A stretch of DNA of 39,550 nt from an uncultured archaeon (lineage in GTDB: Archaea; Iainarchaeota; Iainarchaeia; Iainarchaeales; CSSED10-239). The stretch spans positions 1 to 39,550 of the forward strand of contig CAZGLB010000001.1 in assembly GCA_964526365.1 (NCBI GenBank). The letters are read 5' to 3'. The notes beneath the pieces were generated by a model. The model ran no database searches. It was not told the origin of the DNA and saw nothing but the letters and a program-made list of their open reading frames with translations. Made by a program: the position numbers and the translations under genes. Below, piece after piece: positions 27,218 through 27,546 of the stretch (positions are counted from its first letter, which is position 1; each line of letters begins with the position of its first letter).

Positions 27218-27546
27218 GTAATTACGAGCCTTATTTCAGTAATTACTGTATTAGAGGGTGATTTTTTGGGTGTTTTTGAAATCAATTATACATAAAATAA
27301 CTAGGCGATTTTCTAAATAATTTTAAATTTGGCGTAATTACTGTAATAACCAAAAAGGGGTGTATATAATTACTGTAATTACCAATCCCTTTAAAATAAT
27401 TACGGTAATTACTATAATATAATATGACTAACATTTTTCATAAATTATTAACAAAATTAGGTTTGTTAAAAAAACACAAAGATAATGGTAAAGATAATAA
27501 TTACCAAGAAACTTACCAAAATACTAAAAGTAATTATAGTAATTAC
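27218..27546. repeat. cluster of GTAATTAC palindromes (iteron- or operator-like units TAATTAC-N-GTAAT[T/A]ACCAA)
   Basis: GTAATTAC occurs at 27218, 27239, 27334, 27375, 27405 and 27539, with ATAATTAC half-sites at 27366 and 27396. There are three near-identical 17-20 nt double units at 27334..27353, 27366..27385 and 27396..27413. I expect roughly 1-2 chance hits of this 8-mer in the whole window. Confidence 0.75.

Follow-up and report, generated by a model that had tools for sequence, protein, structure and literature searches.

The closest described counterparts of the system considered here are the autoregulated archaeal repressors with helix-turn-helix (HTH) or winged HTH (wHTH) domains, for example MDR1, LrpA and Phr, whose operators adjoin or overlap the TATA box and start site. 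Further points of comparison are the lac operator O2 inside lacZ (also the looping systems gal, deo and ara), the Fur box, the centromere-binding proteins with their site arrays and the RTP/Ter system of Bacillus subtilis. Auxiliary operators of the lac type are thought to raise the local concentration of repressor by looping. Here we analyse a window of 39,550 nucleotides, contig C1 of an archaeal assembly (682 kb, 82 contigs, 30% G+C; labelled G000) from the uncultivated phylum Iainarchaeota (Iainarchaeota/Diapherotrites in related records), in which the palindromic octamer GTAATTAC is clustered in front of and inside the open reading frame (ORF) 27424, termed ORF171 below, and recurs in the upstream gene trm56. 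The comparison genomes include Candidatus Forterrea multitransposorum (CP045477; G012), archaeon GW2011_AR10 (CP010424; G036, AR10 below), Candidatus Iainarchaeum andersonii and a genome of the window's own genus (G003); L001-L019, L073, L118, L129 and L133 denote orthologous loci in relatives.

The gene and its sites are retained as a pair across the phylum. We consider it on balance probable that the GTAATTAC cluster serves the ORF171 winged-helix protein as its cognate array of binding sites, made up of autoregulatory operators with auxiliary sites; that ORF171 is the binder, that the promoter-proximal site (O3) mediates repression and that the distant sites are brought in by looping is what we infer. 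The original prediction had offered three roles for the palindromes, namely operators for the ORF171 product, recombination sites of a mobile element and origin-type repeats, and the first of these is retained here while the other two are given up. As in the autoregulated archaeal repressors, a small winged-helix protein is accompanied by palindromes in its own promoter, several sites are in helical phase, and the one closest to the gene is preceded by a TATA-like box and followed by the start. Unlike them, ORF171 is unrelated in sequence to any described family, has no visible ligand-sensing domain and carries a long disordered N/Q-rich linker with a conserved N-terminal helix; furthermore, its perfect sites occur nowhere else in the genome, and the sites enter neighbouring coding genes.

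The palindrome array and its predicted binder

Copies of GTAATTAC start at 27218, 27239, 27334, 27375, 27405 and 27539, with two more in trm56 at 25760 and 25791. On re-checking, all coordinates and strings of the original prediction, including these six copies between 27218 and 27546, were found to be correct, and its three double units are present and can now be defined as 7-N-7 palindromes of the form TAATTAC-N-GTAATTA. The features of the promoter and of the adjoining coding region are as follows (positions in the window; distances are from the ORF171 ATG).

27218..27246: distal pair of single octamers, GGTAATTAC at -206 and AGTAATTAC at -185, with a spacing of 21 bp; same positions in the genus relatives L002-L008
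27286..27295, + strand: box TTATACATAA, 138 nt before the ATG; conserved in the anchored promoter alignment
27334..27350: O1, GTAATTAC-T-GTAATAAC, one mismatch, at -89; in register in L001-L019
27366..27382: O2, ATAATTAC-T-GTAATTAC, at -57, 32 bp after O1; consensus ATATAATTACtGTAATTACcaAtc
27390..27398, + strand: TATA-like box TTTAAAATA, overlapping the first bases of O3
27396..27412: O3, ATAATTAC-G-GTAATTAC, at -27, 30 bp after O2, between the TATA-like box and the ATG; consensus TTAaAATAATTACGGTAATTACTATat
27424..27939, + strand: ORF171, presumed binder of the sites; 83 homologues, predicted winged helix
27497..27504: one-mismatch octamer ATAATTACCAA in ORF171 codons N-N-Y-Q
27530..27546: double site GTAATTAT-A-GTAATTAC within ORF171, read S-N-Y-S-N-Y; kept at +98 to +116 in L002-L004

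The window holds 10 copies of GTAATTAC as against 0.82 expected, and none of 100 dinucleotide shuffles contained as many as 10. Eight of the 20 copies in the whole assembly fall in the 1.8 kb between 25760 and 27546 (Poisson P ~1e-16, computed from the assembly counts), and the 12 found elsewhere compare with 10-22 expected under Markov orders 1-6. As the count outside the locus is within this expectation, the word is not a compositional artefact; the original prediction had proposed a genome-wide count against a Markov background, on the ground that a uniformly common motif would be such an artefact, and the motif is not uniformly common. When the entire assembly is scanned for the 7-N-7 palindrome with up to one mismatch, only the copies at 25751, 27334, 27366, 27396 and 27530 are recovered, and the locus amounts to 15 octamer units once one-mismatch copies are included. 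The extended consensus of the octamer with its flanks is tGGTAATTACCAa, and the spacings that recur are 9 bp (within a double site), 21 bp (distal singles), 32 and 30 bp (successive doubles) and 31 bp (trm56). The similarity of spacing between trm56 and the promoter, reported earlier as 39 versus 40 nt, had been measured between unlike positions; it holds when octamer is compared with octamer (31 bp in trm56 versus 32/30 bp in the promoter). In the whole genomes of five relatives, exact 7-N-7 palindromes are confined to the orthologous locus, plus trm56 in G003, and the 1.3-Mb genome G035 has two copies of GTAATTAC in total, both at the wHTH promoter.

A genome-wide avoidance of GTAATTAC, hinted at by a reversed-word control in AR10 (5 versus 59), failed against the Markov expectation, AR10 having 5 copies versus 5.7 expected under the maximal-order model, and G012 and G003 are not depleted. 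With regard to the distribution of the copies outside the locus, all three in AR10 are within 51 kb of the array (981-1033 kb), and seven of the 19 in Forterrea are in a 70-kb stretch (747-817 kb) that reaches orc1-1.

Alignment of 18 orthologous promoters from five genera, anchored on the last palindrome, shows the same start-to-start distances of 32 and 30 bp for O1-O3 and the same distance to the ATG. The last palindrome is embedded in TTTAAAATAATTACGGTAATTACTATA..ATG, and the TATA-like box is constant as TTTAAAATA or TTTATAATA at a fixed distance; its role as a promoter element is presumed from the match to the archaeal TATA consensus. In 76 of 80 phylum-wide loci, GTAATTAC is present within 600 nt upstream of the winged-helix domain, with the rest of the 6-kb loci almost free of it, and distant family members have 1-3 sites each, all at the promoter. 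Within the coding region, the site at +73/+74 persists in L002 and L003 though the protein varies there, and the recurring N-Y, S-N-Y and G-N-Y residues of ORF171 are the translation of the DNA word. The 430-nt spacer that houses the array gave no Rfam match up to E 1 and no terminator-like hairpins when examined for a non-coding RNA.

ORF171 is found as a single copy in 36 of the 41 genomes of the order and in all 10 of the high-quality ones, the misses being incomplete genomes. It has no match in Pfam, NCBIfam or the sequences of the Protein Data Bank (PDB), and a profile search of 1.84 billion representative proteins recovered only 37 members of its family, with a sharp edge and no link to a known family; as far as these data go, the family thus appears to be limited to Iainarchaeota. 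In the literature we found nothing on this motif or this protein family in Iainarchaeota. The protein consists of a short conserved N-terminal helix (NIFKK...), about 60 disordered and variable residues rich in N, Q and T, and a C-terminal winged helix, whose ~95 residues include 27 invariant columns. An AlphaFold2 (AF2) model built with the family alignment reaches a predicted local distance difference test score (pLDDT) above 90 over residues ~90-160 with a helix-helix-helix-wing topology, and the top Foldseek neighbours are all wHTH DNA binders, namely the DNA-binding domains of Fur and PerR, BlaI, MecI, PadR and the viral F-93. This confident model and the fixed register in which the motif accompanies the gene across the phylum support the earlier suggestion of operators for this product.

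The likeness to Fur extends to the DNA: as in the Fur box with its overlapping 7-1-7 heptamer inverted repeats, the 7-N-7 design arises from overlapping short AT-rich units, and it is a Fur-family DNA-binding domain that ranks first among the structural neighbours of the winged helix. Unlike Fur, ORF171 lacks the Fur dimerisation and metal-binding domains, and the fold match is weak (E 4.7e-3; template modelling (TM) score ~0.34-0.42). The likeness is thus one of site design and not of family membership.

On the proposed mechanism, the basic unit would be the 8-bp palindrome, two of which placed 9 bp apart would create the 7-N-7 palindrome. The ORF171 protein would bind the octamer units, and the three phased double sites would permit cooperative occupancy; the spacings of 32 and 30 bp among O1-O3 correspond to about three helical turns, which would place the bound proteins on one face of the DNA. 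As O3 has the TATA-like box before it and a near-leaderless ATG after it, its occupancy should block initiation and result in negative autoregulation: TBP/TFB or RNA polymerase would be kept off and the gene would shut itself off. The distal octamers at -206 and -185, together with the sites in the first 40 codons, could stretch the complex over ~330 bp.

The same sites might instead belong to another DNA-binding protein, for example a regulator of tRNA-iMet, tfe and ORF171, with ORF171 being merely a regulated neighbour. This we regard as improbable. In its favour, the link between ORF171 and the motif is drawn from sequence, and the second conserved element, TTATACATAA, implies at least one more factor or promoter. 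However, the motif stays with ORF171 despite the genes inserted after tRNA-iMet in L118, L129 and L133, it is co-conserved with the invariant wHTH residues across the phylum, and no other gene for a DNA-binding protein is consistently adjacent, the convergent neighbour ORF224 being without a match to an HTH-like fold. ORF224 was itself considered as the binder and set aside, as its model is confident yet resembles neither an HTH-like nor any other PDB fold.

Sites inside trm56 and other coding genes

Outside the ORF171 promoter, the window carries a second group of sites within a tRNA methyltransferase gene.

25607..26152, + strand: trm56, encoding the aTrm56 tRNA 2'-O-methyltransferase, host of the intragenic sites; Pfam PF01994, E 1.2e-40
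25751..25767: trm56 double site ATAATTAC-T-GTAATTAC; its core, 25752-25766, spans codons I49-T54
25791..25798: second trm56 site GGTAATTACCAA, read G-N-Y-Q, 31 bp after the first octamer

These sites lie in true coding sequence, as N-terminal Trm56 can be aligned throughout the order. Of the genomes of the order, 35 possess trm56, and in nearly all of these it precedes the wHTH gene by 1.3-1.9 kb on the same strand. Two earlier claims are confirmed here: the 20-mer ATAATTACTGTAATTACCAA is present at 25751-25770 and again at 27366-27385, and GTAATTACCAA is read within trm56 in two frames, as V-I-T-K at 25760 and as G-N-Y-Q at 25791. The exact 20-mer shared by trm56 and O2 in G000 could be a short conversion patch; in the other three carriers of the sites, the centre base differs between the trm56 site and O2.

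The carriers are only G000, G003, G006 and G007, which read G-I-I-T-V-I-T-K-T-x-E-N-W-G-G-N-Y-Q, as against T-I-I-E-V-L-S-K-I-N-E-N-W-G-G-D-F-K in the site-less sister G002; remoter relatives diverge more. Origin of the first palindrome needed six or more substitutions, among them E to T, L to I and S to T, and that of the second site, which in G002 corresponds to GGGGATTTCAAA (G-D-F-K), needed D to N, F to Y and K to Q; in G006 the second site has decayed to GGCAATTACCGT. In a tree of TFE and of Trm56 with the site region masked, the four carriers form one clade (support 85/85) with G002 as its sister, and hence a single gain of the sites is the simplest history. All six codons with the third base in a half-site are identical in the four carriers, as against 33% of the conserved degenerate codons. 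The codons ATA, ATT, GTA and ATT of the first site are the same in all four, and the bases that vary among them are those of the palindrome centre (ACT or ACA), of the position just outside the core and of eight more neighbouring codons. Such a pattern is as expected of selection on the DNA word and, coming from four related genomes, is supportive of it. The sisters without sites have other residues, the synonymous positions constrained by the motif are invariant and their neighbours vary, and on these grounds the proposal of conservation at the DNA rather than the protein level is supported. Analysis of the single gain and of the synonymous constraint is new here, as is the recurrence of intragenic sites in other lineages.

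If the sites are auxiliary members of the ORF171 array, they would most likely help to retain the protein there or form a loop with O1-O3, and such a loop would enclose tfe and tRNA-iMet. The arrangement resembles that of lac O2, where an extra operator lies within coding sequence away from the main operator, the trm56 sites being 1.6 kb from O1-O3. Unlike lacZ, trm56 is an upstream and functionally unrelated gene, its sites were made by amino-acid-changing substitutions in one sub-lineage, and the looping is our proposal.

Intragenic copies also occur elsewhere. In L129 (860-2825), L118 (905-2985) and L133 (1898-2860), a glycosyltransferase gene and dus, the gene for a dihydrouridine synthase, lie between tRNA-iMet and the wHTH gene and contain 4-7 exact copies of GTAATTAC in two frames, read V-I-T or x-N-Y, with the coding site KD[CS]NYCKD conserved in all three. 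In L073, five copies spaced 18-23 bp apart are found in non-coding DNA at 350-441, beyond tRNA-Phe and at a distance of ~2.2 kb from the main array. This contig bears the name of the bacterium 'Candidatus Vampirococcus lugosii', and its Iainarchaeota-like gene content suggests that it is probably mis-binned. In the window itself, a one-mismatch octamer, CTAATTAC, is present upstream of tfe at 26196-26203, 6 nt before the first tfe start codon (TTG, 26209); in the short trm56-tfe spacer it could be due to chance or be a weak site at the tfe promoter.

A conserved gene block and its distance from the origin

The genes around the array are arranged as follows.

22874-25324, - strand: mutS
25299-25548, - strand: tRNA-Phe, tRNA-Lys and tRNA-Lys
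26209..26802, + strand: tfe (TFE-alpha), between the trm56 sites and the main array; Pfam PF02002, E 5.3e-9; phylum-wide synteny
26919..26993, + strand: tRNA-Met(CAT), read as the initiator tRNA (tRNA-iMet) in the original prediction; ARAGORN, Rfam tRNA 61.7 bits; position conserved in relatives
26994-27423: the 430-nt spacer
27942..28616, - strand: ORF224, convergent neighbour of ORF171; 42 homologues, phylum-wide synteny
28670..28679, - strand: second copy of TTATACATAA, 63 nt before the ORF224 ATG
28873..29253, - strand: PRC-barrel gene, part of the conserved block; Pfam PF05239, E 1.6e-7, synteny
29414..30265, - strand: gene for the XerA tyrosine recombinase, end of the conserved block; NCBIfam NF040815, synteny
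from 30497, + strand: nrdD

This region has a superficial likeness to an island, as it combines a tRNA gene and long AT-rich spacers with ORFs of no known family and a tyrosine recombinase gene. On that account the palindromes would be iterons or att sites of a small element integrated between tRNA-iMet and the recombinase gene, and the copy in trm56 a recombination scar. We find this scarcely credible and have dropped it: the block tRNA-Phe/Lys/Lys-trm56-tfe-tRNA-iMet-ORF171-ORF224-PRC-XerA is syntenic across the phylum, up to AR10 and Ca. Iainarchaeum andersonii, and is therefore not a mobile element; both ORF171 and ORF224 are conserved and present in single copy; and the recombinase, with 271.7 bits versus a cut-off of 220, qualifies as the chromosomal XerA equivalog NF040815. 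Also, no repeat of the tRNA 3' end is found among the direct repeats listed. The earlier proposal of mobile-element recombination sites does not survive this synteny and this score, and the stretch from tRNA-iMet to xerA, previously read as an integrated element, is to be seen as a conserved core block.

A Xer/dif site consists of 11-bp inverted arms with a ~6-bp spacer (PMC2958812). The non-coding spacers between 26994 and 30496 near xerA contain no inverted repeat of the 11-(5..8)-11 form matching at 9/11 or better, save O3 itself.

ORF224 and ORF171 share the box TTATACATAA, of which there are only four copies in the assembly, two of them flanking this convergent pair. The pairing is retained in 17-18 of 21 related loci. 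As both genes carry the box upstream and its pairing is conserved, they are probably co-regulated, which suggests that TTATACATAA is a shared promoter or regulator element; this shared box is described here for the first time. The AF2 model of ORF224 (pLDDT 86.5, predicted TM score (pTM) 0.79) has no match among PDB folds (best Foldseek E 0.04, TM <0.3), nor does the sequence match Pfam, and the model may represent an undescribed fold.

A different function for the palindromes would be that of initiator or terminator sites (ORB-like, WhiP/oriC3-like or RTP/Ter-like), the wHTH protein being an initiator or a fork-arrest factor. The precedent of RTP in B. subtilis, a winged-helix protein whose paired binding sites immediately precede the gene that encodes it, counts for this possibility, and cumulative skews, computed on the three long sequences Forterrea, AR10 and G003, offer it some turning points. 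In Forterrea, where the locus is at 770 kb, the AT-skew and amino/keto (MK) maxima are at 763.8 and 766.3 kb; in AR10, where it is at 981.0-981.6 kb, the maxima are at 980.8 kb for MK, 965 kb for AT and 964 kb for purine/pyrimidine (RY). However, five curves with two extremes each were inspected per genome, such that some coincidence is expected, and the polarity of the turning points near the locus is inconsistent, with maxima in G012 and G036 and a position near a minimum in G003. Forterrea instead has its minima of GC skew and gene orientation (820.2-820.6 kb) beside orc1-1 (816.7-817.9 kb), and the GC and purine minima of G003 (285.5 kb) lie beside its orc1-1 (288.2-289.4 kb), with the locus 57 kb off. 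A perfect palindrome is also awkward for polar fork arrest. We therefore hold an origin or terminus at the array to be very unlikely.

The locus is separated from orc1-1 by 47, 52, 47.5 and 57 kb in G012, G015, G035 and G003, respectively, and by 140 kb in AR10; in G000, orc1-1 is on a different contig from the array. Because the skew minima are at orc1-1, 47-57 kb away in the window's family, the array is not the orc1-linked origin. The suggestion of origin-type repeats is thus not sustained, Orc1/Cdc6 being 47-140 kb away and the GC-skew and gene-orientation minima beside orc1-1 in the window's own genus and family. The coincidence of these minima with orc1-1 in the window's family is new here. 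Although the AT, MK or purine-skew maxima of G012 and AR10 fall 0-17 kb from the locus, we do not take them as evidence of an origin.

With regard to RTP/Ter itself, the similarity lies in the winged-helix protein and in the paired adjacent sites just upstream of its own gene. The systems differ in that a terminus position is unsupported in the window's family and the site is a perfect palindrome; to our knowledge, no termination protein is known in archaea.

Two Orc1/Cdc6 paralogues are present per examined genome, one 53-90% identical to the Orc1 of the window's genome and the other ~30%; a Pfam Cdc6_C search had shown only one per genome. The pairs are located at 1-1089 and 816734-817942 in G012, 839753-840940 and 1127030-1128097 in G036, and 288162-289373 and 301579-302466 on contig C1 of G003. 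In both complete genomes, AR10 and Forterrea, the extremes of GC skew and gene orientation are located at orc1-1; gene orientation in AR10 converges on orc1-1, whereas that in Forterrea diverges from it.

Autoregulation or a structural role for the array

Several points weigh against autoregulatory operators of ORF171. With respect to the protein, the Foldseek E-values are weak (best 4.7e-3; range 5e-3 to 4e-2) and the model displays no evident dimerisation element; with respect to the DNA, the half-site centres are 8-9 bp apart, a tighter spacing than most dimeric wHTH operators show. In trm56, the synonymous-site test rests on four related genomes. The perfect sites occur only at the gene's own locus, leaving no obvious purpose for the regulator beyond itself, and in several lineages the sites reach 1-3 kb into neighbouring genes. 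Given this restriction and this spread, a structural role fits at least as well as plain autoregulation.

Accordingly, the same protein and sites might have a main job that is structural, such as centromere-like partition, membrane tethering or the marking of a domain boundary, with autoregulation as a by-product, which we rate as a possibility of some substance though not as a probable one. One locus per genome holds all the perfect sites; the arrays run 1-3 kb into neighbouring coding genes in independent lineages, with the extra five-site array of L073 beyond tRNA-Phe; and orc1-1 is 47-57 kb from the locus in four genomes. The near-invariant DNA-contacting residues have been kept phylum-wide by a protein whose only perfect sites are at its own gene. 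Its conserved N-terminal helix followed by a long disordered linker is the layout of centromere-binding proteins and Noc, and its conserved neighbours are XerA and a PRC-barrel protein, the latter from a family that has been implicated in FtsZ-based division of haloarchaea (bioRxiv 10.1101/2023.03.28.534520). Copies of GTAATTAC outside the locus lean towards its neighbourhood (3/3 within 51 kb in AR10, 7/19 within 70 kb in Forterrea), but this lean was noticed post hoc, and G003, G015 and G022 show it weakly or not at all. Moreover, remote family members with 1-3 sites at the promoter only look like plain operators, membrane targeting by the N-terminal helix is hypothetical, and no gene for a partner NTPase is adjacent, ORF224 having neither a Pfam match nor a known fold. 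The 39.5-kb window encodes a second PRC-barrel paralogue at 9654-9932 (- strand), besides that at 28873-29253 (- strand).

Comparison with ParB/parS, SegB, TubR/tubC, AspA and Noc bears on the same question. As in these systems, a DNA-binding domain is joined to a flexible N-terminal region, and, as in centromere-binding systems, a site array lies by the gene itself, autoregulation is predicted and the position is unique and origin-proximal. Of the hallmarks of a partition system, the site array beside the binder gene is present and an adjacent gene for a ParA, SegA, TubZ or ParM-type NTPase is absent, and there is no sequence or specific fold relationship to the centromere-binding proteins. 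A more specific and still less likely version, which we put forward only tentatively, is that of a chromosomal landmark ~50 kb from the orc1-linked origin, nucleating on the promoter palindromes, recruiting further sites within neighbours such as trm56 and acting with the co-regulated ORF224, the PRC-barrel protein and XerA.

In DPANN archaea, hardly any transcription factors or chromosome-handling proteins have been characterised. Here a phylum-limited protein family can be paired with its presumed DNA word by comparative sequence alone, and the pairing can be tested in vitro without culture. Trm56 is a case of a housekeeping enzyme whose amino-acid sequence was rewritten in one lineage to carry the predicted sites of a neighbour's product and then held at synonymous positions. 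Should the structural complex prove true, it would represent a new archaeal segregation or tethering system in organisms with minimal genomes.

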